A stretch of DNA of 64,000 nt, taken from NCBI RefSeq assembly GCF_003019035.1, contig NZ_CP027447.1. One strand, written 5' to 3'. The stretch comes from Escherichia coli. GTDB taxonomy: Bacteria; Pseudomonadota; Gammaproteobacteria; Enterobacterales; Enterobacteriaceae. Below are positions 10,225 to 52,851 of the stretch, one piece after another (the stretch's first letter is position 1; the number at the start of each line of letters is the position of its first letter). The position numbers were made by a program, and so were the translations under genes. The notes below the pieces were generated by a model. The model searched no databases and was not told the DNA's origin. It worked only from the letters and a program-made list of their open reading frames with translations.

Positions 10225-10473
10225 ATGGTAAATCGTGAAATAGTAATGGATTACATCCTTTCCTGTTTACAGGATTTGGTCGAAAACGGTGTGGAAATTA
10301 AGCCCAACAGCGATCTCGTCAACGATCTTGGCCTGGAGTCGATCAAAGTGATGGATCTCTTAATGATGCTGGAAGACAGATTCGATATTTCCATTCCTAT
10401 TAATATTCTGCTGGATGTCAAAACCCCTGTGCAATTAATGGAAACTCTACTTCCATGGCTGGAGAATAAATAA
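10225..10473 (+). CDS. acyl carrier protein (dedicated)
   Basis: 82-aa acidic ORF with phosphopantetheine-attachment-type motif DLGLESIKVMDL; stop overlaps next start (TAATG); start may be 10246. Confidence 0.75.
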   Translation: MVNREIVMDYILSCLQDLVENGVEIKPNSDLVNDLGLESIKVMDLLMMLEDRFDISIPINILLDVKTPVQLMETLLPWLENK

Positions 10474-11645
10474 TGGGGCTATACGATAAATATGCGCGCC
10501 TTGCTGGCGAGCGACTGCAATTTAGTGACAACGGGTTAACGCCGTTTGGTACCTGTATTGATGAAGTGTATTCCGCCACCGAAGGTCGGATCGGCAATAA
10601 AAAAGTGATTCTGGCCGGGACCAATAATTATCTCGGTTTAACCTTTAATCATGATGCCATCGCCGAAGGTCAGGCAGCGTTAGCGGCCCAAGGCACCGGC
10701 ACCACCGGTTCTCGTATGGCTAATGGCAGTTATGCGCCGCATCTGGCGTTAGAGAAAGAGATTGCCGAGTTTTTCAATCGCCCTACCGCTATCGTTTTTT
10801 CAACCGGTTATACCGCTAATTTAGGCGTCATCAGCGCACTTGCCGACCATAACGCCGTGGTGTTACTGGATGCCGACAGCCACGCCAGTATTTATGACGC
10901 CTGTTCTCTCGGTGGCGCGGAAATTATTCGTTTCCGCCATAACGATGCTAAAGATCTGGAACGGCGCATGGTTCGCCTCGGTGAACGGGCGAAAGAGGCG
11001 ATTATCATCGTTGAGGGCATCTACAGCATGCTCGGTGACGTTGCGCCGTTAGCGGAAATTGTTGATATCAAACGTCGTCTCGGTGGTTATTTGATTGTCG
11101 ATGAAGCGCATTCGTTTGGCGTGTTAGGCGCAACGGGGCGCGGACTGGCTGAAGCCGTTGGCGTTGAAGATGATGTGGATATTATCGTTGGTACTTTCAG
11201 TAAAAGTCTGGCCTCGATTGGCGGTTTTGCTGTCGGTTCGGAAGCGATGGAAGTGTTGCGCTACGGCAGCCGCCCGTATATTTTTACCGCCTCTCCTTCT
11301 CCGTCCTGCATTGCGACCGTGCGCTCGTCGTTAAGAACCATTGCCTCACAACCAGAGCTGCGGCAAAAGCTGATGGATAACGCCAACCATCTGTATGACG
11401 GTCTGCAAAAACTGGGTTATGAGTTAAGTTCACATATTAGCCCGGTAGTGCCGGTAATAATCGGTTCGAAAGAGGACGGTTTACGCATCTGGCGCGAGCT
11501 TATTTCGCTGGGCGTTTATGTGAATCTTATCCTGCCACCTGCCGCGCCTGCAGGCATCACTCTGCTGCGCTGTAGCGTAAACGCTGCCCACAGTCATGAG
11601 CAAATCGATGCCATCATTCAGGCATTTGCTACTCTGAAGCAGTAA
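10473..11645 (+). CDS. PLP-dependent alpha-oxoamine synthase (serine palmitoyltransferase / KBL / BioF family)
   Basis: 390-aa ORF; class-II aminotransferase fold with PLP-lysine motif GTFSKSLASIGGF; K-12 bioF and kbl are located elsewhere. Confidence 0.8.
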   Translation: MGLYDKYARLAGERLQFSDNGLTPFGTCIDEVYSATEGRIGNKKVILAGTNNYLGLTFNHDAIAEGQAALAAQGTGTTGSRMANGSYAPHLALEKEIAEFFNRPTAIVFSTGYTANLGVISALADHNAVVLLDADSHASIYDACSLGGAEIIRFRHNDAKDLERRMVRLGERAKEAIIIVEGIYSMLGDVAPLAEIVDIKRRLGGYLIVDEAHSFGVLGATGRGLAEAVGVEDDVDIIVGTFSKSLASIGGFAVGSEAMEVLRYGSRPYIFTASPSPSCIATVRSSLRTIASQPELRQKLMDNANHLYDGLQKLGYELSSHISPVVPVIIGSKEDGLRIWRELISLGVYVNLILPPAAPAGITLLRCSVNAAHSHEQIDAIIQAFATLKQ

Positions 11646-11679
11646 TGTGAGCCCGCCGTGGTGTTGCGCCACGGCGGGT

Positions 11680-12759
11680 TTAATGTTGTCTGTCATACCA
11701 ATACACCAGGCTCAACGCCATCAGGACAAACGCTACCGGTAAACCGAGCGCGGTAACAGGTGCACTCAACGCAAATAGCAACCCCAGATTGACCATGATT
11801 TGATAGCTGATCCAGGTGAGTAAGCCAACGATGACGCCTACAGCGAGACGGCTACCCATCCCTGGCGAGCGCGGGGCGCTAAAGGTGAACGGCACAGCCA
11901 GCAAAATCATCGCCAGGGTCAGGATCGGTTGCCCCAGTTTTTCCCACAGTGCAAGGCGGTATTCGCTGCTGGGTTGTCCGGTTTCCTGCAAATAATGGAT
12001 GTAATGATTAAGCTGACGGACAGAAAAAGTATTCCCCGGCATCGATAACTCTTCAAGATCCATACTGGTGAAGGCCGATTGCCAGGCAAGATTATCTGAT
12101 GTTTCCAGCGTTTCTTTGCCATTCAACCATTTTTTATGATTCACACCATGCAGGATCCACGTTTTGTCGTCTTCAATGGAGGCACTGCGTGCAAAAATGT
12201 AGGATTCGAGCGAGAGATCGTCGCGATAATGAAATATCTCCACGCCCACAGGCTGGCCCTGCTCGTTCAGCGATTTCACCGTCACAAATTCATTACCGCG
12301 CCTGGCCCAAAGCATATTGCCGGTAATGTCATCGTCCTCCCCCAACGCGGTGGCAGTCGATTTGATTTGCAGCGCCTGTTGCTGCAATGGCGACGCCACC
12401 CACTCATCTATCGCGCCTAACGAAACAGTCCACAATATCCCGGCAACCAGCGCCACCAGTGCAATACGGAAGATAGAAAACCCAGTGCTGCGAATGGCGG
12501 TAAGCTCACTGTTTTTCGATAACTGCCCCAGGCCAACAATCCCTCCCAATAATGCGATAAATGGCGAAAGTTCGACCAGTGTACGCGGTAAGGTCATCAG
12601 CACCACCAGCACCGCCTGAGTCCAGCGATAACCGCCCGGGCTGACATCATCCAGTTCGTTAATCAGGTTGAAGGTGGTAAAAAGCGGCAGCAATAGCCCT
12701 GCGGCGGCGGCAAAACCGAGAAAGAGATGACGGATTAAATAGCGACTGAAAACATTCAT
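11680..12759 (-). CDS. LptG-like permease (YjgP/YjgQ family)
   Basis: Multi-pass membrane ORF; start set at MNVFSRYLIRH so that it overlaps the upstream gene stop by 4 nt (longest ORF extends to 12840). Confidence 0.7.
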   Translation of the reverse strand: MNVFSRYLIRHLFLGFAAAAGLLLPLFTTFNLINELDDVSPGGYRWTQAVLVVLMTLPRTLVELSPFIALLGGIVGLGQLSKNSELTAIRSTGFSIFRIALVALVAGILWTVSLGAIDEWVASPLQQQALQIKSTATALGEDDDITGNMLWARRGNEFVTVKSLNEQGQPVGVEIFHYRDDLSLESYIFARSASIEDDKTWILHGVNHKKWLNGKETLETSDNLAWQSAFTSMDLEELSMPGNTFSVRQLNHYIHYLQETGQPSSEYRLALWEKLGQPILTLAMILLAVPFTFSAPRSPGMGSRLAVGVIVGLLTWISYQIMVNLGLLFALSAPVTALGLPVAFVLMALSLVYWYDRQH

Positions 12760-13826
12760 CGGGAAAATTTCTGCAGCAAAGAGAAGTCGCGTGCGACCAG
12801 CATCAGCAGGCCCATTAGCATGAGTCCGGGTACTAACCACAAACCAGGAATGAGGGGAATCGCACCGTTAGCCACCAGCGTACGGCAGACGTCGCCGCCA
12901 TAAAAAATGGCAACAAACAGCAACGTCAGTGGCAATAACGTTGAAAATCGCCCTTGCCGCGGTTTTACCCGACTTAATGAAATGGCCAGCAGCGCCATCA
13001 ACAATGCGGTCAGGCCACGGCTTTGTCGCCATTGCAGTTCGGCATGATCGGCTGGAAAGACGGAGCGCGCCAGCTCCGTGACCGATTTTGCTTTGCGTTT
13101 GACGTTAGGGCTTTGATCCAGCTGATTCAGATGTAATTGCAGATTACGGTAGATCTGTTCGTTGTCGTCACGCCCCTGATGATCGAGAAGATAGGCGGTC
13201 CCGTTATGCAACATAACGGTCGGTTTCTCAGGTGATGGGTCAACCACATCAACCGAACGGGCGCGGAAAATGCGGGTTCGATTGGCAGTAGAAGTATAAA
13301 TCAGCGCGTCAGTCAGGCGATTATTATCCTGATCAACCGTCTGCGAAAGGATCATTCGTCCGTTATCGTTAGTGTTAAATTTCTTTGCCCGCAACTGGCG
13401 AACATCCAGCTCCGACTGCGACTGTTGCTCCAGTTGATAAATCTGCGCATAAGCCCACGGCCGACCATACATCGACAGAAGGGTGACAAAAATACTTAGC
13501 GGTATCGCCAGATAAAGAACGGCTTTGTACAAGCGTCCCGGACTGCCCCCCGCCGCAGAGATAGCGGTAATTTCCGAGTCGGTATACATCTGCCCTAGCG
13601 TCACGCCAACTGACACATACAGACCAACAGGTAACAACATCTCCAGTGCAATCAGCACTTTGTAGAAAACGATATCCAGCACAACATCAAGAGCTAAGGT
13701 CCCATTTGCCGCTTCGGTCAGATAACGCTGTGCGGAGTAGCTGGCGAAAATAAAGATCAGAAAACCGACGATAATCAGCACCAGACGGCGCGTACCACGC
13801 ATGATGTAGTGTTCAACCAGCTTCAT
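12756..13826 (-). CDS. LptF-like permease (YjgP/YjgQ family)
   Basis: 356-aa ORF, N-terminal TM helices, large periplasmic loop, C-terminal TM helices; paired with LptG-like gene. Confidence 0.7.
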   Translation of the reverse strand: MKLVEHYIMRGTRRLVLIIVGFLIFIFASYSAQRYLTEAANGTLALDVVLDIVFYKVLIALEMLLPVGLYVSVGVTLGQMYTDSEITAISAAGGSPGRLYKAVLYLAIPLSIFVTLLSMYGRPWAYAQIYQLEQQSQSELDVRQLRAKKFNTNDNGRMILSQTVDQDNNRLTDALIYTSTANRTRIFRARSVDVVDPSPEKPTVMLHNGTAYLLDHQGRDDNEQIYRNLQLHLNQLDQSPNVKRKAKSVTELARSVFPADHAELQWRQSRGLTALLMALLAISLSRVKPRQGRFSTLLPLTLLFVAIFYGGDVCRTLVANGAIPLIPGLWLVPGLMLMGLLMLVARDFSLLQKFSR

Positions 13827-13856
13827 CTCACTAACACCCTCAATCCTTTGAATTTT

Positions 13857-14420
13857 TTATTCATTGATCAGTTTCTGCGCCAGCGCAATGACATGATCTA
13901 CCTCTTCCGGCGTCAGGCTGCCGTCCTTTGCCCACTGAATTTGCCCGTCTTTATTCAGCACCAGAATGGTTGAACTCTGCTCCGGCAACCGCCAGGCAAC
14001 GCGTCCCAGTCCATTGCCGTCAATAACGAATTGCGCCCACGGATAGCGGCGTTTATTTTTTTCGATTTTGCCAACGACAAAATAGCCAGTACCGAAGATG
14101 GCATCATCGGTGTTCACAATGGTGGTGGGCTGAAAACGATCCTGCGGAAAGTTTGCCGCTTCAACCGCTTTAATTAACAGTGAGTTCTTTTTCTTCGCCG
14201 ACTTACGCCCGGCGATATACTGAATAATGCGGACTTTTCCCGCCAGCTGTGTGCTGTTCCACTTTTGGTAGTGAATTTCGTCGTCGCTATTCAGAAGCAG
14301 CTCGCCGCCTTCCTGGATATAAACGGGGGTAACCGTTTTGCCAGTGACGAAATTGTGTGCCTGCACACCCTGGGCTAAGAGCATGATAATCAGCGCAATA
14401 ATCAAACGAGATGACATCAT
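13857..14420 (-). CDS. secreted/periplasmic protein of unknown function (possibly thioredoxin-like fold)
   Basis: 187-aa ORF with N-terminal signal peptide MMSSRLIIALIIMLLAQGVQA; fold assignment is a guess. Confidence 0.55.
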   Translation of the reverse strand: MMSSRLIIALIIMLLAQGVQAHNFVTGKTVTPVYIQEGGELLLNSDDEIHYQKWNSTQLAGKVRIIQYIAGRKSAKKKNSLLIKAVEAANFPQDRFQPTTIVNTDDAIFGTGYFVVGKIEKNKRRYPWAQFVIDGNGLGRVAWRLPEQSSTILVLNKDGQIQWAKDGSLTPEEVDHVIALAQKLINE

Positions 14421-14428
14421 TGCTCCGG

Positions 14429-15253
14429 TTATAGCGGAAAACGCGAAATCAGCAGCTCTAAGCGCTGGCGAATATCGCTATCCAGCGCCACCGGTGCATC
14501 ATACGACTGGCGGTTTTCCATATCATCCGCCACCATGTCGTCGTGTTTATCCCCCATCAGGCCATTAATGGCGGCGAGGAAGCGGGAAATCTGTAACGCC
14601 TCTTTATTTTCAGGATCAAGCGATCTTAAGGTGTCGTAATAAGAAACCTGCTGGCTGATGATTTTTCGCACATCATGAAATTCCCTGCCGGTGAGTCGCG
14701 GTTTGGCAATTATCTCTTTCAGGGTATGCATTTGCTTTTGCCGATAGGCAATAAAACCGCTTACGCTTTCTAACTGGCTATGGCGTAATGAATAGTTCAC
14801 CAACGACCAGACCGGAGAGCTTAAATAAACCCGTAACAGGTTGCCGTAATACGACACAATATTTTTCTTACCGTTACGAAAACCGTCCTGAAAACGCCCC
14901 AAAAAAACGGTCGTTTTGCCGAATAAAAATCCGGCCTGATGCTTCTTTAAATACAGCCGTTGCGCAAAACGCAGGTGCTTGTAGCGCGCTCGCATGTATT
15001 TATACTTTTTGCGCTCATCGTCGGTAAGTATTTTGCCTTTTGCTTGTTTCAGCGTTAAGCGAAGTAACTCTTTGCGATTTACACCATCCAGCCAGAATCT
15101 CAAACATAAGGCATAATTGTCATGAATAATCTCCGGTGAACAGCGCAAAGTGATCGTTGGCGGCAAGCTAACCTGTGTGTCAATAACATCATTATCATCA
15201 ACAGCAATAAATAAACGCTCAATGACCTCAAGTGGAAAGTATTTTCTCATCAT
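14429..15253 (-). CDS. hypothetical basic protein, no recognisable domain
   Basis: 274-aa ORF; start overlaps yghQ stop (ATGA coupling) so likely translated. Confidence 0.55.
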   Translation of the reverse strand: MMRKYFPLEVIERLFIAVDDNDVIDTQVSLPPTITLRCSPEIIHDNYALCLRFWLDGVNRKELLRLTLKQAKGKILTDDERKKYKYMRARYKHLRFAQRLYLKKHQAGFLFGKTTVFLGRFQDGFRNGKKNIVSYYGNLLRVYLSSPVWSLVNYSLRHSQLESVSGFIAYRQKQMHTLKEIIAKPRLTGREFHDVRKIISQQVSYYDTLRSLDPENKEALQISRFLAAINGLMGDKHDDMVADDMENRQSYDAPVALDSDIRQRLELLISRFPL

Positions 15254-16602
15254 TGGAATTTTTCTCCGACTCCGTTATAGACCAATAAATGGCGACGGAG
15301 AAAAGTCCTTAATGTCGGTGCTAACGACAGGATCACATCCAGACATTGACCACCGAAATAAGCAAATGCAGCCCCCATTACGCCAAACAGATGACAAAAC
15401 ATAAACAACAAAATAACGTAAGCTAACGATGCAATAGTTTGTGCTATCAAAAAAGCGCGCTGTTTTCCCGCCATCAATAGCAATGACTCCTGAGGGAAGC
15501 CCAGCATCGAGATCACAATTGCGCCCAGCATCACCTGAATCAGGTCATACGCTTCGAGATACTTAACGCCAAACACCAGCGAAATAAGCGGCTTGCCGAC
15601 GATCAACACCGCGAGCGCCACCAGAATTCCGATTCCGCCCGCCAGTAAACCTGACTTCACGCCTAACAACCACGGTCTGGTGGTGCGCGGATCTAAACGC
15701 ATCACCTCTGGGTAAAAACTTTTGCCCAGTAAACCCGCTGGCGTTCCGGCGGCGTCGAAGAATGTCATGGCGATTTTAAATAACCCGGCGGCAGCGGGTC
15801 CTAACACGATCCCCACCAGCACTGTGCTGCACGAGTTACGCGCCGACCAGATGGAGTGGGCAATGTTGGTTGACCAGACAAAACTCCACGCGCCTTTGAT
15901 GTGTCGGGCAGACTCAAACAGATTCAATTTGAACGCGTTATGGATATTTCTGCGGCGTAATTCGCGCGCGGCAAACCACCAGTACATGGTGCCGCCAACC
16001 AGATTCGACACGTACCAGGCAATAACAAAGCCCGCAAAACCAAAGTCAAAATACCAGGCTACGACGCTCCCCGCTGCGCGCAGAAAAGGTTTCGTCGCTT
16101 GCTGTACAGCAATTAGATCGAAGCGATCTACCGCACGCAGAATGCCGGTCGGCGTGGAGGAAGCCATTGAAGGAATGAGCGTGCAATACAGCGCTGCCAG
16201 CCAAAAGCTTTGGTCATCCAGACCTAATGAATGGGAAAGAAAAGGGAGTAAGGCAATGCCGCCGACAATCGCCACCGCGCCGCTGACGATATCCAGCGAG
16301 AAGGAAAATGAGACGACATTGCGGAATTGCTGCGGATTATTGTTGGTTAATGCTGGTGTTCCGTACTGAACCACCAGCTGCCATGTCTGAAACTTAATAA
16401 AATCGCTGATCGACTTGGCGTACGATTGTACAATCACCAGTACGCCAAACATGGCGGGCGTCATCCCTTTACCGGCACACGAGAGCGCCAACAGACCCAG
16501 TAAAGCGCTCACGACATTACTGGAGCCTAACCAGGCGCTATTGCGAATAATGGTGCGAAACGCGCCATCTGCAAACCAATGTTTGATGTTAAAACCCGCC
16601 AA
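15250..16602 (-). CDS. yghQ: MOP-superfamily (Wzx/MurJ-like) flippase, full length
   Basis: 450-aa polytopic membrane ORF; recognised as YghQ but longer than the 355 aa I recall for K-12; start uncertain. Confidence 0.75.
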   Translation of the reverse strand: MAGFNIKHWFADGAFRTIIRNSAWLGSSNVVSALLGLLALSCAGKGMTPAMFGVLVIVQSYAKSISDFIKFQTWQLVVQYGTPALTNNNPQQFRNVVSFSFSLDIVSGAVAIVGGIALLPFLSHSLGLDDQSFWLAALYCTLIPSMASSTPTGILRAVDRFDLIAVQQATKPFLRAAGSVVAWYFDFGFAGFVIAWYVSNLVGGTMYWWFAARELRRRNIHNAFKLNLFESARHIKGAWSFVWSTNIAHSIWSARNSCSTVLVGIVLGPAAAGLFKIAMTFFDAAGTPAGLLGKSFYPEVMRLDPRTTRPWLLGVKSGLLAGGIGILVALAVLIVGKPLISLVFGVKYLEAYDLIQVMLGAIVISMLGFPQESLLLMAGKQRAFLIAQTIASLAYVILLFMFCHLFGVMGAAFAYFGGQCLDVILSLAPTLRTFLRRHLLVYNGVGEKFQ

Positions 16603-23787: not shown

Positions 23788-23818
23788 GTCGCAACATTGG
23801 CAGGCTTATCGCTATGTA

Positions 23819-23848
23819 GCCGGATAAAGCATTTACGCCGCATCCGGC
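23819..23848. repeat. REP (repetitive extragenic palindromic) element
   Basis: gccggataaagcatttacgccgcatccggc between convergent yghU and hybG; matches enterobacterial REP pattern. Confidence 0.7.
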
Positions 23849-23856
23849 TTTAATCA

Positions 23857-29283: not shown

Positions 29284-30402
29284 TTATTCTCCCCGTGAGT
29301 CAGCGTTATCTTTCTTTTGCTGACGACCCAGTTCACGCACCGCCATCACGCTGACACCGGCAACCAGCCCAACCACACCGCCGAGCAAACCAATAGCGCC
29401 CGCAGAGACGTTGCCGCCTTCTTTAGCGTTAACGTCCGGTTTCTGTGAACGCGGAGTCTGATTTTCGACGTTGGCAAGCTGATGGATGCCTTTATGGAAG
29501 CCGATACCTTCTTCGTTACAGCCATAGCACGGGTGACCAATCGCCACCGGCCACACGCCGCCAACGTCGCAGAATTGCAGCGTTGAGCAGTTGCCGTAAG
29601 TTTCTGGCCCTTTACAGCCGAGGTGGTACAGGCACCAGCCTTCACGGTGGCCTTCGTCGCCGAACTCTTTCGCAAAGCGACCAGCATCGAAGTGCGGGCG
29701 ACGTTCACAGTGTTCGTGAATCAGACGGCCATAGGCGAAGGTCGGACGGTTTTTGTCATCCAGTTTCGGCGGCTTGCCGTAAGTGATAATGTGCGCAACG
29801 GTCGCGAGGAAGTTGTGCGGGTTCGGCGGGCAGCCCGGAATGTTGATAACGGTTTTGCCAGGCAGAACTTCTTGCAGGCTGACTGCGCCAGTTGGGTTAA
29901 CCCCAGCCGCGGCAACACCGCCCCACGCAGAGCAGGAACCGATAGCGATAATGGCTGCTGCGCCTTCCGCCGCTTTGCGGATGTGATCCACAATCGGCTC
30001 ACCGGCAACCATGCAATAAATACCATTATCTTTTAATGGGATGGAACCATCCACCACTAACACATACTGCCCTTTGTACTTCTCGAGAGCGTTATGTTTG
30101 TTCTCTTCGACCTGATGACCGAAGGCGGCGGAAAGCACTTCGTGATATTCCAGAGAGATAGTCTCCAGCACGAGGTTTTCTACCGTTGGATGCGTTGCAC
30201 GAAGCAGAGATTCCGTACAACCGGTACACTCCTGCGCGCCAATCCAGATAACTGGCGGACGCTGCGGGTTAGTAACCGATTCGGCCATCTCTGCCGCGGC
30301 TTTGCTACTTAACCCCATGGTGGCGGCTAATGCTGCACAAAGCTTCATGAAATCACGACGGTTAATGCCGTGAGAATGGATGAGGGTGTTATCTCCAGTC
30401 AT
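29284..30402 (-). CDS. hybO: [NiFe] hydrogenase-2 small subunit
   Basis: 372-aa ORF with Tat signal ([13 protein letters not shown]) and Fe-S cysteine ligands. Confidence 0.9.
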
Positions 30403-30590
30403 TTATAGTTATTCCGTTGCGAAGACCTGGCATATATTTTGCCTCAATCGCAAAATCAATAATGCGATCGATGCGCCATTTACCACACATTTATTATGGT
30501 TATCGATATCATGATACTGCGGCGGGGCGCTAAAACGAAGGGAAGAAGCATTAGTGTAATTAATTAAAGCAAGATAATACGTATGTTTGA
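30403..30590 (-). promoter_or_regulatory. hyb operon promoter region
   Basis: 188-bp AT-rich non-coding interval immediately upstream of hybO; regulatory role inferred from position. Confidence 0.4.
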
Positions 30591-30878
30591 TCAATTTTCG
30601 AGGCGATAACCGGCCATAAAAAAGCGCAACGTAGAACAGGAATTATTCTCACGAAAGAAATCCATTACCATCTCTTTATCCAGTCCATAGCGGCGCGTCA
30701 GAATACCCGCTTCCCAGGCGCTAAGCTGGCGATCTCCGGTCTTTTCGTACATCCGGTGTGAGTAGCCTAATACAAAACCGCGTTTATAATCGGCACAGTA
30801 TTTTGTCACATTAACCGCACTGTCGGCATGCGTTGCTTTTAATCCCGCCATTAAGCCTTTACCAAAATGGTTATTCAT
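30591..30878 (-). CDS. yghW: DUF2623-family small protein
   Basis: 95-aa ORF upstream of hyb operon. Confidence 0.8.
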
Positions 30879-30996
30879 CGTTCACCTCATTCGCTATATA
30901 TTGTCATATATAGCGATATTTTAGGCAAAGAACGACTTTTGCGCACGCTATTTTTTCATGCTTGTTTAAGACGTAATCCCGTAAGAGATAAACCTA

Positions 30997-31887
30997 TCAG
31001 GAGAGATATTTATCGAACCATTTCAGCGTCCTTTGCCAGGCAAGATCGGCGGCAGATTTGTCATAACGGGGCGTGGAATCATTATGGAATCCGTGATTAA
31101 CCCCCGGATAGATATACGCCTCATAGACCTTATTATTGGCTTTCAACGCCGCCTCGTAAGCAGGCCAGCCCTCGTTGATTCGGGTGTCCAGTTCCGCGTA
31201 GTGGAGTAGTAAAGGCGCTTCAATCTTCGCCACATCGGCAGTGGGTGCCTGTCGACCATAAAACGGCACCGCGCAGGCCAGTTCCGGATACGCGACAGCC
31301 GCCGCGTTCGATACGCCACCGCCATAGCAAAATCCGGTAATACCCACTTTGCCTGTCGCTTGCGGATAGCGTTGCATAAACTCAATTGCGGCAAAGAAAT
31401 CATTCATCAGTTTGGTTGGATCAACCTGCTGTTGCAGCTCACGACCTTTATCATCATTACCCGGATAACCTCCAACGGAACTTAAGCCGTCAGGTGCCAG
31501 GGCGATATACCCCGCCTTCGCCACTCGCCGTGCCACATCTTCGATATACGGATTCAGTCCACGATTCTCATGCACCACCACTACGGCTGGCGTTTTGCCG
31601 CTCATCTTTGCGGGCTTCACCAGATAACCCCGCACCTCGCCGTGACCATTTGGCGAAGGATACGTGATGTACTCAGCAACAATTTCCGGGTCGGTAAACT
31701 CTACCTGAGTCGCCAGCGCATAATTTGGCTTGAGCAAATCAAACAACGCTAATGCCGTCATCCCGCCTACCGCATACTTCGCCGCAAGGTTGAGGAACTC
31801 ACGTTTCGAGATTTTCCCGTGAGCGTAATAGTCGTAGTAATCCAGCAACTCTTGTGGGAAATCTTTGGCGGTTAAACGCGGCATCAT
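30997..31887 (-). CDS. yghX: dienelactone hydrolase-family protein, apparently intact
   Basis: Continuous ORF (310 aa from first Met, about 296 aa from MMPRL) with alpha/beta-hydrolase nucleophile elbow GFCYGG. Confidence 0.75.
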   Translation of the reverse strand: MMPRLTAKDFPQELLDYYDYYAHGKISKREFLNLAAKYAVGGMTALALFDLLKPNYALATQVEFTDPEIVAEYITYPSPNGHGEVRGYLVKPAKMSGKTPAVVVVHENRGLNPYIEDVARRVAKAGYIALAPDGLSSVGGYPGNDDKGRELQQQVDPTKLMNDFFAAIEFMQRYPQATGKVGITGFCYGGGVSNAAAVAYPELACAVPFYGRQAPTADVAKIEAPLLLHYAELDTRINEGWPAYEAALKANNKVYEAYIYPGVNHGFHNDSTPRYDKSAADLAWQRTLKWFDKYLS

Positions 31888-32040
31888 TGCACTCCTCAGT
31901 TGGTGTTTTTTTAAGCAAAGCATAAGCACGTGTTTTTGCCCAGTTTTTCGTCACTCTGTGAGCCAGACTACGGGATACGCGCTGGCGAATCGCTAAACTA
32001 GAAACATTGTTTCGAAATTGAACGGTGGAAAGGAGAGGTC

Positions 32041-33081
32041 ATGGTCTGGTTAGCGAATCCCGAACGTTACGGGCAGATGCAGTACCGCTATTGCGGAAAA
32101 AGTGGTTTGCGCCTGCCCGCGTTATCGCTCGGTTTATGGCACAATTTCGGTCACGTTAACGCGCTGGAATCACAGCGTGCGATCCTGCGTAAAGCGTTTG
32201 ATTTGGGCATTACGCACTTTGATTTAGCCAATAATTACGGGCCGCCTCCAGGAAGCGCAGAAGAGAACTTTGGTCGCCTGCTGCGCGAGGATTTTGCCGC
32301 TTATCGCGATGAACTGATTATCTCTACCAAGGCTGGCTACGATATGTGGCCCGGCCCTTACGGCTCTGGCGGTTCACGTAAATACCTGCTCGCCAGCCTC
32401 GACCAAAGCCTGAAGCGTATGGGGCTTGAGTATGTCGATATCTTTTACTCTCATCGCGTCGATGAAAATACGCCGATGGAAGAAACCGCCTCTGCGCTGG
32501 CTCATGCGGTACAAAGCGGTAAGGCGCTGTATGTCGGGATCTCCTCTTACTCGCCAGAGCGGACGCAAAAAATGGTCGAGTTACTGCGCGAGTGGAAAAT
32601 TCCGCTGTTAATTCATCAACCTTCGTACAATTTACTGAACCGCTGGGTGGATAAAAGCGGCCTGCTGAATACCCTGCAACATAACGGCGTGGGCTGCATT
32701 GCCTTTACTCCTCTGGCTCAGGGATTGCTGACCGGAAAATATCTCAACGGCATTCCGCAAGATTCACGGATGCATCGTGAAGGGAATAAAGTTCGTGGTC
32801 TGACGCCGAAAATGCTCACCGAAGCCAACCTCAACAGCCTGCGCTTATTGAATGAAATGGCACAGCAGCGTGGACAATCAATGGCGCAAATGGCGTTAAG
32901 CTGGTTGCTGAAAGATGAGCGAGTGACGTCGGTATTGATTGGTGCCAGCCGCGCGGAGCAACTTGAGGAGAACGTGCAGGCGCTGAATAATCTGACATTT
33001 AGCACCGAGGAGCTGGCGCAGATTGATCAGCATATCGCCGATGGCGAGCTGAATCTGTGGCAGGCGTCTTCCGATAAATGA
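32041..33081 (+). CDS. yghZ: aldo-keto reductase (L-glyceraldehyde 3-phosphate reductase)
   Basis: 346-aa AKR-family ORF. Confidence 0.9.
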   Translation: MVWLANPERYGQMQYRYCGKSGLRLPALSLGLWHNFGHVNALESQRAILRKAFDLGITHFDLANNYGPPPGSAEENFGRLLREDFAAYRDELIISTKAGYDMWPGPYGSGGSRKYLLASLDQSLKRMGLEYVDIFYSHRVDENTPMEETASALAHAVQSGKALYVGISSYSPERTQKMVELLREWKIPLLIHQPSYNLLNRWVDKSGLLNTLQHNGVGCIAFTPLAQGLLTGKYLNGIPQDSRMHREGNKVRGLTPKMLTEANLNSLRLLNEMAQQRGQSMAQMALSWLLKDERVTSVLIGASRAEQLEENVQALNNLTFSTEELAQIDQHIADGELNLWQASSDK

Positions 33082-45056: not shown

Positions 45057-45307
45057 TTTGCTTCCAGAAATGATAAAAAAATAATCAAAGGCCGGGGATT
45101 ATACGCTGTATCACGCGCGGAAATGAAGTGATGTTGATGAACGGTGGCGAAATACCCTGGTGAGGTTTTTCACTGCCCGACTTGGGCAAGCACATTTAAG
45201 GCTGGCGGTATCGTGGCAACTGCCGCTACTATTTATGCCGATCAGCAACGTTCAAATCATATTGCACGACGATCGGCTATCCGAGGACACCCACAGTAAG
45301 GCAAGGT

Positions 45308-46057
45308 ATGGAACAGGTTATTACAAAGCGCCGCTATTACGATATTGGTCTACAGATTGAAGAGCTGCTGTATTCAGGCGTATTTAAGGCCGGAGAACGC
45401 TTACCTTCAGAACGTGAACTGAGCGAGCGGTTTAATACCAGCCGAACTACCATTCGTGAAGCCATCATTATGCTGGAACTGAAAGGCGTATTGAATGTGA
45501 AGCAAGGGTCAGGGATTTTCTTTGTCGACTCCACCGATAAGCTCAACCAGAAATCATTAATGCCCTATTCAGAAATTGGCCCGTTTGAACTGTTGCAGGC
45601 GCGTCAGGTGATTGAGAGCAATATTACTGGTTTTGCAGCCAGCCAGATTAGCTTTAACGAGTTACAAGAGTTAAAGAAAATCATTAGCTTGCAGGAAAAC
45701 GCTATCGCTGCGGAAAGTGATAAATTTGAAGACCTGGATCACCGATTTCATAGCATTATTGCCGAAGCGACGCAAAATCGGGTACTCATCAAACAAGCCG
45801 CTGAATTATGGCGGGCAGTGCGCACAGAAAACCCCCGCTGGAAGAAACTTAACTACAAGTACCTGCATGAAAAGCATTTGCGTCTGCAATGGCTGGAAGA
45901 TCACCGGGCTATTTTCCTGGCTCTGCAACAGAAAGATTCAGAGCTCGCCAGGGAAGCGTCCTGGAGACATCTGGAAAACAGCAAAAATGAACTGATCAAA
46001 ATCTTCAAACAAGACGCTTCCATCAGCGATTTTGATGACTTTTTCTTCGCTCGTTAA
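45308..46057 (+). CDS. GntR/FadR-family transcriptional regulator
   Basis: 249-aa ORF; N-terminal winged HTH (ERLPSERELSERFNTSRTTIREA), FCD-type C-terminal domain. Confidence 0.8.
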   Translation: MEQVITKRRYYDIGLQIEELLYSGVFKAGERLPSERELSERFNTSRTTIREAIIMLELKGVLNVKQGSGIFFVDSTDKLNQKSLMPYSEIGPFELLQARQVIESNITGFAASQISFNELQELKKIISLQENAIAAESDKFEDLDHRFHSIIAEATQNRVLIKQAAELWRAVRTENPRWKKLNYKYLHEKHLRLQWLEDHRAIFLALQQKDSELAREASWRHLENSKNELIKIFKQDASISDFDDFFFAR

Positions 46058-46379
46058 CCTTCATTAGTCCAGAGCTGGCGTGAAAAATGACGCTGGCTCT
46101 GCGTTGCACCCTCCACTGGTATACGCTCTCTTCTCAATTGGTCTAATAAATCGATTATCATCAGATATCTTAGATTAGCGGCAATTATCCCAAAAACTGA
46201 CTTCTAAAAAACTTTCCTTTCATTTTATTCATATAACTCATTGATACAGATATAAATAACGCCTTGTTGTTCTGTTTCGTACTTTTACCTTTCTCTGCAA
46301 GCGTGATGCATCTCTCTGTTTTTGGTCTAGTGAATTATGTAAATTGGTATACACACAAGCCACCAGGAGTAAGAGCATA

Positions 46380-47852
46380 ATGTCAGGGAACGAAAGTATC
46401 GATGCCGCCCACTATGATCAGGTAACCACCTGGCCTCGGGGCGGGTTACAGGCAGATATTGTCCATATTGGTTTTGGCGCTTTTCATCGCGGACACCAGG
46501 CTGTCTACACGGATCTCACTAATCAACTTTCGGACACCCGCTGGGGGATCTTTGAGATCAACCTGTTTGGTGATGCTCAACTGATCGAAAACTTAAATGC
46601 GCAAAATGGGCTGTTTTCGGTTGTGGAAACATCTGCATCGCAATCTACCTCACGCCTTGTGCGTTCGGTGGCTGGCGGTATTCATACCCCCAGAGATGGC
46701 ATTGCCGCAGCAATCCATAAACTGGCTGAACCTCAGGTAAAAATCGTTTCATTAACCATCACCGAGAAAGGTTATTGCCTCGATCCGCAAACACGTTCAC
46801 TTGATCTCACCAATGGATTAATCCAACACGATCTACAAAACCCGGATGCGCCTCTGTCAGCTATTGGCGTGATCGTCTGTGCTTTGCAACAACGTAAAGC
46901 GACAGGACTCGCCGCTTTTAGTGTGCTCTCCTGTGACAACTTGCCAGACAATGGGCATCTGACGCGCAATGCCGTTCTCGGTTTTGCCCGACAACTGGAC
47001 CAGCCCCTGGCTCAGTGGATCGAAGAAAATGTCTCATTTCCAGGCACGATGGTAGATCGCATTGTTCCGGCAATGACTGAATCGCAATTCGCCTTACTGG
47101 AAACGAAAACCGGTTATGCCGATCCCTGCGGGATCGTCTGCGAATCATTTCGTCAGTGGGTGATCGAAGATAATTTTGTGCGCGGACGACCACAATGGGA
47201 TAAAGCCGGCGCGATGTTTGTCAGCAATGTTCAGCCTTATGAAGAGATGAAGTTACGCATGTTAAATGGTAGCCATTCATTTCTGGCTTATAACGGCTCG
47301 CTGGCAGGCTATGAGTTTATCTGGCAATGCATGGAAGACGCTAATTTTCGTTCCATTACCCACCAACTGATGATTAATGAACAAGCCCGAACACTTAATC
47401 CAGACTTAAATATCAACATCCAGGAATACGCCGACCTGTTAATTGAACGCTTTAGCAACCGTAACGTTGCACACCGTACCGGGCAAATAGCCATGGACGG
47501 TTCACAAAAGCTTCCCCAGCGTGCACTGACGCCCTGGCTGAAATTACATCAGCAAAAGCAAAACAATGCTGTTCTGTCACTGCTCGTTGCTGGTTGGTTG
47601 CATTATGTCATTGATGCTGTTGAGAAAAGCCAGTCTGTCGCTGATCCAATGAATGACCAATTTCAGGCGCTAATAAAGGAACAACAAGACGCATGGCAAC
47701 AGGCGCTCGCATTACTGCACCTTAGCGCCATATTTGGTGATTTAAGCAACCATCAGCCATTTATAAATGAAATAAAAATCGCCTTTGCGAATATAAAAAA
47801 CAAAGGCATCAAGGCCACCATCAGCCAATTATTATCGGATGAGCAGAAATGA
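46380..47852 (+). CDS. mannitol-dehydrogenase-family oxidoreductase (fructuronate/mannonate-reductase-like)
   Basis: Start moved from TTG at 46344 to ATG at 46380 preceded by aggag RBS (MSGNESIDAAHY); long-chain mannitol DH family features. Confidence 0.75.
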   Translation: MSGNESIDAAHYDQVTTWPRGGLQADIVHIGFGAFHRGHQAVYTDLTNQLSDTRWGIFEINLFGDAQLIENLNAQNGLFSVVETSASQSTSRLVRSVAGGIHTPRDGIAAAIHKLAEPQVKIVSLTITEKGYCLDPQTRSLDLTNGLIQHDLQNPDAPLSAIGVIVCALQQRKATGLAAFSVLSCDNLPDNGHLTRNAVLGFARQLDQPLAQWIEENVSFPGTMVDRIVPAMTESQFALLETKTGYADPCGIVCESFRQWVIEDNFVRGRPQWDKAGAMFVSNVQPYEEMKLRMLNGSHSFLAYNGSLAGYEFIWQCMEDANFRSITHQLMINEQARTLNPDLNINIQEYADLLIERFSNRNVAHRTGQIAMDGSQKLPQRALTPWLKLHQQKQNNAVLSLLVAGWLHYVIDAVEKSQSVADPMNDQFQALIKEQQDAWQQALALLHLSAIFGDLSNHQPFINEIKIAFANIKNKGIKATISQLLSDEQK

Positions 47853-48865
47853 AAACATTAATTTGTCAGCAGCCTGGCGTTATGGAATATGTGGAAAAGG
47901 ATATTCCCACACCAGCAGATAATGAAGTGCTGTTAAAAATCAAAGCTGTGGGTATTTGTGGTACTGATATTCACGCTTTTGCCGGCAGACAGCCTTTTTT
48001 TAGCTACCCACGTGTATTAGGTCATGAAATATGCGCCGAAGCGGTTTCGCGAGGCAGCCAGTGCCAAACAGCACAATCAGGCCAGCGCTATTCCGTCATC
48101 CCATGCATTCCGTGTGGCGAGTGCGCAGCCTGTCGGGAAGAGAAAACGAACTGCTGCGAACGTGTTTCGCTGTATGGCGTGCATCAGGATGGGGGTTTTA
48201 GTGAGTACCTTGCGGTACGTGAAGACAACCTTGTGCCTCTCCCTGACGAGGTCAGCGACAGTGCCGGAGCATTGGTTGAATGTTTCGCCATTGGTGCACA
48301 TGCCGTTCGTCGGGCAGAGATCAAGGCTGAACAAAACGTACTGGTGGTTGGCGCTGGGCCAATCGGTCTGGCTACCGCGGCCATCGCCAGGGCTAAAGGG
48401 GCGCATGTTGTTGTTGCTGATATTGATTGTCAACGTCGCCAGCACGTTGTGGATCATCTGGCAATTAATGTCTTCGACCCAACACAGGAAGGTTTTATTG
48501 CCGCGCTTAGTGAAGTATTTGGCGGCGAACTGGCTTGCGTAGTCCTGGATGCGACGGGAAATAAAGCTTCAATGAGTCATGATGTAAATCTTATTCGTCA
48601 TGGCGGCAAAATTGTTTTCATCGGTTTGTACATTGGTGAACTTGTTATTGACGATCCGACCTTCCATAAAAAAGAGACAACGTTACTCAGCAGCCGCAAT
48701 GCCACACGGGAAGATTTTGCGTTGGTGATTGAACTGATGCGCAGCAATAAAATTCACGAAAATTTAATGAAAAACCAGGCGTTCAATTTCTTTAGTGTTG
48801 GCGAAGATTACCAGCGTAACGTTGTAGAAAATAAAAATATGGTCAAGGGTGTGATCACTTTTTAA
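47849..48865 (+). CDS. Zn-dependent medium-chain alcohol/polyol dehydrogenase
   Basis: 338-aa ORF; catalytic GHE motif, structural-zinc Cys cluster CGECAACREEKTNCC, Rossmann GAGPIG; ATGA overlap with upstream gene. Confidence 0.8.
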   Translation: MKTLICQQPGVMEYVEKDIPTPADNEVLLKIKAVGICGTDIHAFAGRQPFFSYPRVLGHEICAEAVSRGSQCQTAQSGQRYSVIPCIPCGECAACREEKTNCCERVSLYGVHQDGGFSEYLAVREDNLVPLPDEVSDSAGALVECFAIGAHAVRRAEIKAEQNVLVVGAGPIGLATAAIARAKGAHVVVADIDCQRRQHVVDHLAINVFDPTQEGFIAALSEVFGGELACVVLDATGNKASMSHDVNLIRHGGKIVFIGLYIGELVIDDPTFHKKETTLLSSRNATREDFALVIELMRSNKIHENLMKNQAFNFFSVGEDYQRNVVENKNMVKGVITF

Positions 48866-48875
48866 GGGAACAAAT

Positions 48876-49886
48876 ATGACAACTGTTTATGTCAGTGAAG
48901 AAAATTTAAAATCACTGGTGCACCACAAATTACATACCGCCGGGCTGGATACCGACACCACACAACAGGTGACAGATGTTTTAGTACATGCCGATATTAC
49001 AGGTGTGCATTCACATGGTGTTATGCGTGTCGAACATTATTGCACCCGCCTTGCTGCCGGAGGGTTAAATAAAGCCCCGCAGTTTAGCATTGAGCAAATT
49101 TCACCGTCAGTGGCCATTCTCGACTCTGACGACGGAATGGGGCATTCCGCATTAATTAGCGCCACTGAGCACGCTATTAAACTGGCCCAGCAAGAGGGCC
49201 TCGGTTTTGTTAGCGTTAAAAACACGTCTCACTGTGGTGCGTTATCTTATTTTGCAGAGATGATCACCAACAAAGGGTTGGTTGCTATCGTAATGACGCA
49301 AACCGATACCTGTGTGGCTCCCCATGGCGGCGCCGAGCGCTTTTTGGGAACTAACCCCATCGCCTTTGGTTTCCCGGTGGAAAACAGCCATCCGATGATT
49401 GTTGATATGGCGACCAGTGCCACGGCTTTCGGCAAAATACTTCATGCAAAGGAAACCGGAAAACATATTGGTGAAGGGCTGGCGATAGATAAAAACGGTT
49501 ATGGCACCACTGATCCGTATAAGATTGAAAACCTGCTACCTTTCGGCCAACACAAAGGTTCAGGCATTGCACTGGCTATTGATGCACTGACTGGCGTGCT
49601 GATGAATGCGAATTTTGGCAACCATATTGTTCGCATGTATGGTGATTATGACAAGATGCGTAAGCTGGCAAGTTTGGTTATTGCCATCGATCCGAAAAAG
49701 CTCGGCAATCCTGTTTTTGCAAAAACCATGGCGCAAATGGTCACGGAGTTGCATGCCGTTAAACCGGCTCCCGGTATCGAAAAAGTGTTAGCGCCGAACG
49801 ATCCGCAAATGCACTACAAAGAAAAATGCCAACAGGAAGGTATTCCGGTTCCGGCAGGAATATTCCATTATCTGGCAGAGAATTAA
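48876..49886 (+). CDS. Ldh2-family (malate/L-lactate dehydrogenase 2-type) oxidoreductase
   Basis: 336-aa ORF with Ldh2-family features (HSHGVMRVEHY, GTNPIAFG). Confidence 0.75.
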   Translation: MTTVYVSEENLKSLVHHKLHTAGLDTDTTQQVTDVLVHADITGVHSHGVMRVEHYCTRLAAGGLNKAPQFSIEQISPSVAILDSDDGMGHSALISATEHAIKLAQQEGLGFVSVKNTSHCGALSYFAEMITNKGLVAIVMTQTDTCVAPHGGAERFLGTNPIAFGFPVENSHPMIVDMATSATAFGKILHAKETGKHIGEGLAIDKNGYGTTDPYKIENLLPFGQHKGSGIALAIDALTGVLMNANFGNHIVRMYGDYDKMRKLASLVIAIDPKKLGNPVFAKTMAQMVTELHAVKPAPGIEKVLAPNDPQMHYKEKCQQEGIPVPAGIFHYLAEN

Positions 49887-49958
49887 TCACTACTTTTTAT
49901 TATAACGATAGAAAAGCGCTGTATTTATCGTTTCTGTTATATTAACCAGGAGCAAGAT

Positions 49959-50942
49959 ATGAAAGCACTTCGTCCTCTGACGGCATCGCTTATGCTGTTA
50001 ACCAGTTGTTTTTTAGTTTCCAATACCACACTGGCAAAAACAACATTAAAACTCAGTCATAATCAGGATAAAAGCCATGCTGTCCATAAAGCATTAAGCT
50101 ATTTAGCGGATAAAACCAAAGAGTATTCTAATGGTGAATTAGTTATTCGCATTTACCCAAATGCGACATTAGGTAATGAGCGTGAATCACTGGAATTAAT
50201 GAACTCCGGTGCATTACAGATGGTTAAGGTTAATGCTGCATCACTAGAATCATTTGCCCCGGATTACAGCCTTTTCAGTCTGCCGTTCTTATTTCGCGAC
50301 CGTGATCACTATTATCGTGTTCTGCAAAGTGATTTAGGTAAAAAAATACTTAAGTCATCAGAAAGCAAAGGTTTTGTTGGTATTACGTACTATGACGGCG
50401 GTGCGAGAAGTTTTTATTCCAATAAACCGATTACAAAACCTGAAGATTTAGCGGGAATGAAAATCAGGGTTCAACAAAGCCCCAGCGCCATTGCAATGAT
50501 GAAAGCACTCGGTGGTGTCGCTACCCCGATGGCGCAAGGCGAACTCTACACCGCACTTCAGCAAGGTGTGGTTGATGGCGGAGAGAACAATACCGTTGTC
50601 TATTCCGATATGCGTCACGCCGAAGTCGCAAAAGTCTATTCACGTGATGAACACACCATGGTACCTGATGTGTTAATTATCAGCACCGACGTGTTGAATA
50701 AACTTGGTGATAAAGAGCGCACGGCATTATTAAAAGCAGCCGATGAGTCAATGATGCAGATGAAGGACGTCATCTGGCCTGCGGCTGAAAAAGAAGCCTA
50801 CGACAAAATGAAAGGGATGAACGCAACAGTTGTTGATGTTGATAAATCCGCTTTCAAAGAACGCGTCAAACCGTTATACGATGAATTCAAGGCGAAAGAT
50901 GCACAATCCGCCAAAAACCTTGAGCAAGTAGAAAGTATGTAA
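49959..50942 (+). CDS. TRAP transporter substrate-binding protein (DctP family)
   Basis: 327-aa ORF with signal peptide and DctP-type sequence. Confidence 0.8.
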   Translation: MKALRPLTASLMLLTSCFLVSNTTLAKTTLKLSHNQDKSHAVHKALSYLADKTKEYSNGELVIRIYPNATLGNERESLELMNSGALQMVKVNAASLESFAPDYSLFSLPFLFRDRDHYYRVLQSDLGKKILKSSESKGFVGITYYDGGARSFYSNKPITKPEDLAGMKIRVQQSPSAIAMMKALGGVATPMAQGELYTALQQGVVDGGENNTVVYSDMRHAEVAKVYSRDEHTMVPDVLIISTDVLNKLGDKERTALLKAADESMMQMKDVIWPAAEKEAYDKMKGMNATVVDVDKSAFKERVKPLYDEFKAKDAQSAKNLEQVESM

Positions 50943-50983
50943 CCCTAATGGGCAGGTAATTCCTGCCTTTTCATGGAAGACTT

Positions 50984-51466
50984 ATGCGAACACTCACTCA
51001 TATTCTTAATAAGATCCTTGCCGGATGTTGCCGCATTATTCTCGCCATTATGGTGTTCTGCGTAACCTGGCAAGTTATTGCACGTTTTATTTTTAACGCT
51101 CCCAGCACTGTGCTTGATGAGTTCACCCAGATTTTATTTATGTGGATGATTTTACTTGGTGGTGTATATACTGCGGGGTTAAAAAAACATCTGGCCATTG
51201 ATTTGTTGGCTCAAAAACTTCCGGCTGCATCTGTTCTGACGCTTGACTGTTTTATCCAAATTATTATTACGGTCTTTGCGGTTATTTTCATGATCTATGG
51301 CGGGAATATTGTTGTTGAAAAAGCACAACATGTTGGACAAATCTCTCCTGTATTAAAATGGCCGATGGATAAGGTTTATTGGGTTATGCCTGCCAGTGGG
51401 CTTATTCTGGTCTGGTATTCAGTGATGAATATCATCGACAACTATCGCAAATGGAATTCTCATTAA
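50984..51466 (+). CDS. TRAP transporter small permease (DctQ family)
   Basis: 160-aa ORF with four predicted TM helices. Confidence 0.75.
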   Translation: MRTLTHILNKILAGCCRIILAIMVFCVTWQVIARFIFNAPSTVLDEFTQILFMWMILLGGVYTAGLKKHLAIDLLAQKLPAASVLTLDCFIQIIITVFAVIFMIYGGNIVVEKAQHVGQISPVLKWPMDKVYWVMPASGLILVWYSVMNIIDNYRKWNSH

Positions 51467-51476
51467 CGAGGGAAGT

Positions 51477-52781
51477 ATGGACATTGAATATATCTACCCC
51501 GTCTTAATTTTATTTGGCAGTTTTGCCGTCATGCTGGCAATCGGTGTGCCAATTACTTTTGCGATTGGTCTTTCTTCGCTGTTATCTATTATTACTGCCT
51601 TACCACCCGATGCCGCCATTTCTGTGATTTCGCAAAAGATGACTGTGGGGCTGGATGGCTTTACGCTATTAGCCATTCCCTTCTTCGTGTTAGCCGGAAA
51701 CATTATGAATACCGGTGGTATAGCCAGACGACTGGTTAACCTGGCGCAAGCATTAGTTGGGCGTCTTCCTGGCTCACTGGCTCATTGTAATATCCTCGCG
51801 AATACACTGTTTGGTGCGATTTCAGGTTCAGCCGTTGCGTCAGCCGCAGCGGTAGGTGGGATTATGTCACCACTGCAAGAAAAAGAGGGCTATGATCCGG
51901 CGTTCTCTGCGGCGGTTAATATTGCCTCTGCCCCCATTGGCCTGATGATCCCACCGAGCAATGTGTTGATTGTTTATTCCCTCGCCAGTGGCGGGACTTC
52001 TGTCGCTGCGTTGTTCTTAGCTGGATATCTGCCGGGCATCCTCACCGCTGTTGCCTTAATGTTTGTAGCTGCACTTTATGCCCGACGTCACCATTACCCA
52101 GTGGCCGAACGCATCAATTACCGTCAGTTTTTACAGGTATTCCGCGAATCAATTCCTAGCCTGATGCTTATTTTTATCATTATTGGCGGTATTATCGCAG
52201 GGGTATTTACGCCCACAGAAGCATCAGCAATAGCGGTAATTTATAGTTTAGCCCTGGCGATGATTTACCGGGAAATCACCATCAAGAAACTCAATGACAT
52301 CCTGTTAGACTCCGTAGTAACCAGTTCAATTGTTCTGTTGCTGGTAGGCTGCTCGATGGGGATGTCATGGGCCATGACGAATGCTGATGTTCCTGAGTTG
52401 ATCAACGAACTGATTACCCGCGTTTCGGATAACAAATGGGTCATTCTATTTATTATTAATATCATTCTGTTGATCGTCGGTACCTTTATGGATATCACGC
52501 CGGCGATCCTGATATTTACACCTATTTTCCTGCCGATCGCCCAGCATCTGGGGATTGATCCGATTCACTTCGGCATCATTATGGTTTTCAACTTAACCAT
52601 TGGCCTTTGCACACCACCTGTCGGCACCATTCTGTTTGTGGGGTGCAGCATTGGTAAGGTCAGTATCGACAGGGCAATAAAACCATTACTGCCGATGTTT
52701 CTGGCATTGTTTGTAGTAATGGCAATTATTTGTTATTTCCCGCAGCTTAGTCTGATGCTGCCAGGATTATTTTCGACCTGA
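51477..52781 (+). CDS. TRAP transporter large permease (DctM family)
   Basis: 434-aa polytopic ORF. Confidence 0.8.
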   Translation: MDIEYIYPVLILFGSFAVMLAIGVPITFAIGLSSLLSIITALPPDAAISVISQKMTVGLDGFTLLAIPFFVLAGNIMNTGGIARRLVNLAQALVGRLPGSLAHCNILANTLFGAISGSAVASAAAVGGIMSPLQEKEGYDPAFSAAVNIASAPIGLMIPPSNVLIVYSLASGGTSVAALFLAGYLPGILTAVALMFVAALYARRHHYPVAERINYRQFLQVFRESIPSLMLIFIIIGGIIAGVFTPTEASAIAVIYSLALAMIYREITIKKLNDILLDSVVTSSIVLLLVGCSMGMSWAMTNADVPELINELITRVSDNKWVILFIINIILLIVGTFMDITPAILIFTPIFLPIAQHLGIDPIHFGIIMVFNLTIGLCTPPVGTILFVGCSIGKVSIDRAIKPLLPMFLALFVVMAIICYFPQLSLMLPGLFST

Positions 52782-52840: not shown

Positions 52841-52851
52841 GAATTGGTCCA

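Follow-up and report, generated by a model that had tools for sequence, protein, structure and literature searches.

An intact yghX allele in Escherichia coli encodes a dienelactone hydrolase-family protein with a predicted Tat-type signal peptide and represents the majority state of the species

All dienelactone hydrolases (DLHs) share a cysteine nucleophile, and in ClcD, the carboxymethylenebutenolidase of Pseudomonas knackmussii, the role of Glu36 is well established. The closest relative of known structure to the gene considered here is the protein of PDB entry 4ZV9, which was deposited as an "uncharacterized protein" and whose source is E. coli O157:H7 Sakai (PMC8533429). The same protein has been purified as "EcoDLH" and assigned a Cys-His-Asp triad in a preprint, according to which the active-site cysteine is oxidised or modified in the crystal and neither paraoxon nor FDDEP is detectably turned over by the enzyme; the main text of the preprint profiles the paraoxon-active enzymes only and gives no esterase or lactonase values for EcoDLH (bioRxiv 10.1101/2025.10.30.685675).

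In K-12 MG1655, the locus is annotated as the yghX pseudogene (b4658), which is overlapped by the small gene yqhI (b4755). YqhI is one of the small proteins that were found in K-12 by epitope tagging on the chromosome, in a paper that also names a K-12 fragment "yghX_2" (PMC6001520). A literature search for the name yghY, which the initial annotation gave to a K-12 fragment, returned nothing relevant, and the current K-12 record consists of the yghX pseudogene and yqhI. Nearly all of the literature that we found on yghX uses the pseudogene in K-12 as a site of integration, many metabolic-engineering papers treating it as a neutral "pseudogene" position, and none of it characterises the enzyme. 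Earlier records already cover the gene, the family to which it belongs, its structure and the K-12 frameshift, and the intact reading frame described here is a confirmed but ordinary observation.

We examined yghX in a window of 64,000 nucleotides of E. coli DNA (contig NZ_CP027447.1 of assembly GCF_003019035.1). The open reading frame listing contains an uninterrupted minus-strand frame at 30997–31929, which has 310 codons from a GTG and carries the motif GFCYGG (residues 184–189 in the 295-residue numbering used throughout). The chance of 310 stop-free codons is ~(61/64)^310, about 3e-7. The initial annotation had described a continuous frame of 296–310 codons at the yghX position, with GFCYGG as the nucleophile elbow of an alpha/beta-hydrolase. 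The elbow is present, the range is correct, and the gene order hybO-yghW-yghX-gpr-yqhA is shared by the window, K-12 and five further strains, with yghW (30591–30878) and gpr (32041–33081) flanking yghX and hybO lying upstream. Over 1,141 bp, the window allele is 100% identical to a genome in which PGAP annotates an 888-bp CDS, WP_001309763.1, as "YghX family hydrolase", and the 295-residue protein of the window is identical to WP_001309763.1. The protein also matches the NCBIfam YghX model NF041440 over its full length (profile positions 1–292 of 292; 588 bits against a cut-off of 460), so that the claim of an intact yghX frame at this locus is confirmed by both the ORF and the model match.

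The start codon was assigned by comparing alleles. Following the Shine-Dalgarno sequence GAGGAG, the window has two adjacent ATG codons, at 31885–31887 and then at 31882–31884, while the six other alleles compared (K-12, CFT073, O157, O104, GPEC1352 and PK8275) read ACG-ATG. Since this second ATG is present in all six and PGAP calls a CDS of 888 bp, we take it as the conserved start, which gives the 295-residue product. The upstream GTG at 31927–31929 reads GCG (within ACGCGC) in four of the six other alleles, and no Shine-Dalgarno sequence lies ahead of it. Starts at the GTG (310 residues) and at the first ATG (296 residues) were both rejected because neither is conserved among the alleles, and the extension that they define is probably not translated as part of YghX. 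A single C-to-T change at 31885–31887 gives the window allele its first ATG, and with it an optional extra N-terminal Met. The features of the locus are as follows.

31892–31897, minus strand: Shine-Dalgarno sequence GAGGAG, 7 nt 5' of the conserved ATG (read from the sequence; invariant in seven alleles).
31885–31929, minus strand: in-frame 5' extension of the maximal ORF (GTG at 31927–31929, extra ATG at 31885–31887; allele comparison).
30997–31884, minus strand: yghX coding sequence, 295 amino acids plus stop, start ATG at 31882–31884 (ORF; PGAP CDS of 888 bp; NF041440).
31711–31884, minus strand: residues 1–58, predicted Tat-type signal peptide (PF23678; family alignment; conservation pattern).
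31801–31806, minus strand: Lys27-Arg28, the site of the twin arginines of the family (family alignment).
31774–31776, minus strand: Tyr37 codon (TAT), site of the 2-bp (TA) deletion of K-12 (pairwise alignment; three-frame translation of K-12).
31003–31635, minus strand: DLH alpha/beta-hydrolase domain, residues 84–294 (Pfam PF01738).
31567–31569, minus strand: Glu106 codon in an H-E-N-R-G motif, the putative equivalent of ClcD Glu36 (alignment with 4U2C; Glu in 27 of 33 family members).
31414–31416, minus strand: Thr157 codon (ACC), site of the 1-bp (C) deletion of K-12 (pairwise alignment; translation).
31327–31329, minus strand: Cys186 codon (TGC), predicted nucleophile in GFCYGG (aligned with ClcD position 123; Cys in 31 of 33 family members).
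31186–31188, minus strand: Asp233 codon (GAC), predicted triad acid (aligned with ClcD Asp171; 33 of 33).
31093–31095, minus strand: His264 codon (CAC), predicted triad base (aligned with ClcD His202; His in 31 of 33).

The family counts refer to 33 sequences, the query and 32 full-length homologues aligned with it, out of 4,901 representatives that an exhaustive homologue search returned at E ≤ 1e-10. The catalytic domain matches Pfam PF01738 across the entire profile (positions 1–217 of 217; 3e-48; 164.5 bits against a gathering score of 21). The partner in the ClcD alignment was 4U2C, a C123S variant with serine at position 123. On this alignment the predicted family triad, Cys186-Asp233-His264, is complete, and Glu106 is called auxiliary by its equivalence to Glu36. 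A search of the PDB returned 4ZV9 at E 7e-161, in which the orthologue of O157:H7 Sakai starts at about residue 60. In Foldseek, the AlphaFold2 model of YghX (pLDDT 96.6) superposed on 4ZV9 with a TM score of 0.99 and an rmsd of 1.0 Å over 237 columns; for ClcD (1DIN), the TM score was 0.84.

The initial annotation had named a Ser-Asp-His triad as the catalytic set to look for. A classical serine hydrolase with this triad would have the G-x-Nu-x-G elbow pattern that YghX has, and YghX gives weak Pfam matches to families of serine peptidases and esterases in the same clan, but the residue at its elbow is Cys186, which aligns with Cys123 of ClcD and is a cysteine in 31 of the 33 homologues, and the 4ZV9 protein has been published with a Cys-His-Asp triad. 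The reading as a serine hydrolase is refuted by the elbow cysteine, and we give it practically no weight. Of the triad that was named, the serine is absent, while the Cys-Asp-His triad of the family is complete on alignment.

We consider it very likely that the window carries an ordinary intact yghX allele, which would encode a 295-residue precursor made up of a Tat-type signal (residues 1–58) and a hydrolase of the DLH fold (residues 59–295). By analogy with the family, the Cys thiolate would attack the carbonyl of an ester or lactone, an acyl-thioenzyme would form, and water would then free the acid. The suggestion in the initial annotation that the enzyme is functional in this strain is borne out as far as in silico tests reach, since all of them agree (the NF041440 match, the triad, dN/dS and a 98%-identical crystal structure); the intact frame, the family, the triad, the fold, the purifying selection and the two K-12 lesions with their frequencies are direct results of the analysis, whereas the catalytic activity, the export route, the signal cleavage and the substrate class are what we infer for the protein.

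A different activity has been proposed for YghX from its GxCxG box and by analogy with PHA synthases, namely that of a polymerase for short-chain poly-(R)-3-hydroxybutyrate (cPHB). As related in a review, Rychlewski et al. list ysgA, ycjY and yghX as candidates by fold similarity and the GXCXG box, and the review places most cPHB polymerase activity in the periplasm, which would fit an exported YghX (PMC3709699). However, yghX is frameshifted in K-12, where cPHB was studied, and the best sequence and structure matches of YghX are all to DLH-type hydrolases and not to PHA synthases. The GxCxG box is the sole basis of the proposal. We therefore regard a polymerase as very improbable and treat YghX as a predicted hydrolase.

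Alignment with K-12, which the initial annotation had proposed as the way to locate the frameshift, showed that the two sequences are not identical over the interval. The DNA of K-12 MG1655 is 99% identical to that of the window, with two deletions and 10 substitutions in the pairwise alignment, and the deletions are one of 2 bp in codon 37 and one of 1 bp in codon 157. The description of K-12 yghX in the initial annotation as a frameshifted pseudogene is correct as to the pseudogene (b4658), but there are two compensating frameshifts (−2 and −1) and not one. Together the deletions remove 3 bp, so that residues 38–156 (about 120 codons) fall out of frame, after which the correct frame resumes. 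Beyond these two deletions, alignment and translation of the K-12 copy revealed no further stop or lesion. When the two affected codons are masked, the only protein difference from the window is Y229F, a common polymorphism that is also found in O157 and O104, which argues that the inactivation is recent.

Frame 0 of the K-12 copy ends after 47 codons and yields YqhI, which reads MPRLT...LAAK followed by CGRRDDGISVV. The small protein (K-12 yqhI corresponds to 31741–31884 of the window) consists of YghX residues 1–36 and 11 frameshifted residues, and it is the only detected translated remnant of the inactivated K-12 copy. The paper naming YqhI sought a domain match for it, with its origin from YghX unmentioned (PMC6001520).

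We scored both deletion sites in a sample of 5,426 complete E. coli genomes, of which 5,425 have the 1,141-bp region, using probes of 40–42 nt centred on each junction and requiring each 28-mer seed to span the junction. At site 1 (2 bp, codon 37), 1,251 genomes were K-12-type and at least 3,588 were intact (3,333 window-type and 255 CFT073-type), with 586 unclassified genomes that carry other SNP variants. At site 2 (1 bp, codon 157), there were 1,199 K-12-type, 4,221 intact and 5 unclassified genomes; site 2 is the better estimator, because 5,420 of the 5,425 genomes are classified. In most E. coli yghX is intact, with K-12 as the outlier. Being in the majority, the intact form is, by inference, ancestral. 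The initial annotation had set the intact copy of this strain against K-12, but an intact copy is not special to the strain: it is the majority form (4,221 of 5,426 genomes intact at site 2) and is routinely annotated.

Carriers of the deletions include the K-12 derivatives W3110, MC4100 and DH1 as well as natural isolates of human, pig, poultry and water origin. In ETEC H10407, yghX bears the PGAP flag "frameshifted" and has the same 885-bp length as in K-12. In K-12 and in about one in five sequenced E. coli, natural phylogroup-A-like isolates such as ETEC H10407 among them, the copy has been inactivated recently. The site 1 deletion exceeds the site 2 deletion by 52 genomes, and about 50 genomes likely have the first lesion alone. 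Assuming nested sets, the counts suggest that the 2-bp deletion came before the 1-bp deletion.

Because yghX has been lost in about a fifth of the genomes, the gene is dispensable in at least one lineage. An intact frame could belong to a gene that is effectively silent or decaying, cryptic and en route to loss. In K-12, in ETEC H10407 and in over 1,200 further genomes the gene was lost with no obvious consequence, and the purified EcoDLH was inactive on two phosphotriesters according to the main text of the preprint. Moreover, a consensus scan for promoters and terminators over 30400–32200 gave match counts no better than those of shuffled sequence, with nothing usable and no convincing sigma-70 promoter in the yghX-gpr spacer. 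Set against this are the substitution rates. When intact alleles of six distantly related lineages were compared (the window, CFT073, O157:H7, O104:H4, GPEC1352 and PK8275), dN/dS was 0.04–0.12 in all 15 pairs, with dS up to 0.23, and such values across phylogroups show clear and strong purifying selection on the intact yghX. The triad and the Tat motif are conserved, and homologues are widespread (the 4,901 representatives at E ≤ 1e-10). In addition, the same promoter and ribosome-binding region yields detectable YqhI in K-12, and the 60 nt upstream of yghX differ between K-12 and the window at only 2 positions; since YqhI is detected from the same start and ribosome-binding site behind a nearly identical upstream region, the intact gene is likely expressed. 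A silent or decaying gene therefore seems to us quite unlikely, and a live gene under selection is the reading that we retain.

The N-terminal segment of YghX has the parts of a Tat-type signal peptide. Residues 1–36 match the Pfam YqhI-like family PF23678 (1.5e-21), and the segment can be divided into an n-region (1–25), S-K-R-E-F-L (26–31), an h-region (32–52), Pro53 and A-L-A (56–58), with the 4ZV9 construct beginning directly after Ala58. The consensus of the 33 family sequences is LYDxYxHxxxxRRxFL, followed by a variable stretch rich in Ala, Gly, Ser and Leu and then by P-x-x-A-x-A. Position 27 is Arg in 28, Lys in 3 and His in 2 of the 33 sequences, position 28 is Arg in 30 and position 30 is Phe in 28; at the predicted cleavage site, Ala is found at −3 in 20 and at −1 in 24. 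Conservation is lowest in the h-region, which is mildly hydrophobic (the maximum 12-mer Kyte-Doolittle value is 1.59, at residues 37–48), and highest in the motif and the c-region.

All 120 close enterobacterial homologues have KR at positions 27–28, whereas 28 of the 33 diverse homologues have RR. With KR and not RR, the YghX signal would be rejected by strict Tat predictors. Signals with KR are known to stay Tat substrates, both in engineered mutants and in the natural protein TtrB (PMC1182353). In the order proposed here, the RR of the family would be replaced by KR in enterobacteria, and a weakly hydrophobic h-region, a proline and a signal-peptidase site of the Ala-x-Ala type would follow. 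From the RRxFL-type motif, the h-region, the AxA, the conservation pattern and the start of the 4ZV9 construct, we infer that YghX is a periplasmic enzyme exported by Tat in E. coli, a reading drawn from sequence features that we hold to be probable on balance. The reaction would probably take place in the periplasm, following Tat export of the folded protein.

The N-terminal 58 residues could instead be a retained element, such as an active-site cap or a membrane anchor, and YghX would then be active in the cytoplasm or on the inner membrane. In the AlphaFold2 model, residues 1–60 (window 31705–31884) are three short helices with a pLDDT of 92–96 and a whole-chain pTM of 0.93, which is atypical for a cleaved signal peptide. 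The n-region (1–25) is more conserved among enterobacteria than the catalytic domain (94.5% versus 87.4%) and has a Pfam family of its own, PF23678, and the enterobacterial sequences have KR, not RR. However, RRxFL followed by a variable A/G/S/L-rich h-region, a proline and Ala-x-Ala is the signature of a Tat signal, and the h-region is the least conserved part, unlike a packed helix. Furthermore, the truncated protein, which starts at about residue 60, folds, crystallises and superposes on the model at 1.0 Å, which means that the fold can form without the N-terminus. We regard a retained element as somewhat doubtful; predicted export by Tat remains our preferred reading.

A bolder version of the export reading would make YghX an unrecognised Tat substrate of E. 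coli, with a long, conserved n-region (YqhI-like in Pfam, LYDxYxH) as a functional module docking onto the folded enzyme ahead of its export and with YqhI as the orphaned remnant of this module. The n-region might serve as a handle for proofreading or of a chaperone-like kind, or it might be a pro-peptide that covers the reactive Cys186. Such a substrate would have been missed because K-12 lacks YghX and because the signal carries KR in place of RR. We offer this version as speculation and think it rather unlikely. A literature search for a periplasmic dienelactone hydrolase with a twin-arginine signal returned nothing relevant. The predicted Tat signal with KR and the conserved n-region, which went unnoted in the initial annotation, are the only part of the present analysis with some novelty.

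The genomic surroundings of the homologues gave no operon or substrate clue: at three distant homologue loci (P0140, P0124 and P0137), the gene stands alone and the neighbours differ from locus to locus (glyoxalase-like, cytochromes, PQQ dehydrogenase, kinase). Elsewhere in the window, several segments differ from K-12. An 8.4-kb segment between yghO and yghQ (7148–15533) is absent from K-12, where IS5 (insH9) sits. In a strain that matches it at 100%, the segment is annotated with a fatty acyl-AMP ligase, an NAD epimerase/dehydratase, an acyl carrier protein, a serine palmitoyltransferase (spt), LptG- and LptF-like permeases, a YtfJ-family protein and others, and it looks like a cluster for the biosynthesis and export of a lipid, perhaps sphingolipid-like. 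A 7.7-kb island between ygiQ and ftsP (45104–52850), also absent from K-12, holds genes for a GntR/FadR-family regulator, for three dehydrogenases (mannitol-DH family, Zn-ADH and Ldh family) and for a three-gene TRAP transporter, and is probably a sugar-acid utilisation module. At approximately 59415–59419, the window lacks the K-12 toxin-antitoxin pair mqsR-mqsA (927 bp, K-12 3167820–3168746), with 5 bp between the homology blocks. The yghA-exbD spacer (at 34727/34728 of the window) is longer by 233 bp in K-12, and the yghU-hybG gap (23789–23850) is 62 bp in the window versus 115 bp in K-12; these two length differences may be REP-type elements.

The K-12 annotation is not the norm of the species, as yghX appears to be a live gene under selection in most E. 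coli. The "small protein" YqhI of K-12 is the head of a broken predicted signal peptide.

Compared with the described systems, YghX of the window is closest to 4ZV9/EcoDLH, whose gene is the same and occupies the same locus; over the mature parts the identity is 98% (V69F, S135N and Y229F), and the triad is identical. The crystal construct lacks residues 1–59, and the window allele has the extra, non-conserved ATG 5' of the start; nothing of substance separates the two. K-12 b4658/b4755 is the orthologous locus, with 99% identical DNA and the same start codon and Shine-Dalgarno sequence, but it lacks 2 bp at codon 37 and 1 bp at codon 157, and its reported translated product is the 47-residue YqhI only. 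With ClcD (1DIN), YghX shares the Pfam family, the fold (TM score 0.84) and the equivalents of Cys123-Asp171-His202 and Glu36. In contrast to YghX, ClcD, at ~25% identity, is a cytoplasmic enzyme of 236 residues that has no N-terminal signal and is encoded in a chlorocatechol operon, while yghX is a stand-alone gene without aromatic-degradation neighbours. The next-best solved relative, the putative DLH of Klebsiella pneumoniae (KpDLH, 3F67; E 8e-24, 28% identity), has the GFCxGG motif, the Asp and the His, but belongs to another subfamily; its alignment begins at residue 82, and the solved chain lacks a YqhI-like N-terminus. The KR-type Tat signals, those of Salmonella TtrB and of engineered SufI and TorA, resemble the N-terminal segment of YghX in K-R-x-F-L, a mildly hydrophobic h-region and AxA, whereas the n-region of YghX, for which export is predicted from sequence, is unusually long (25 residues), acidic and strongly conserved.
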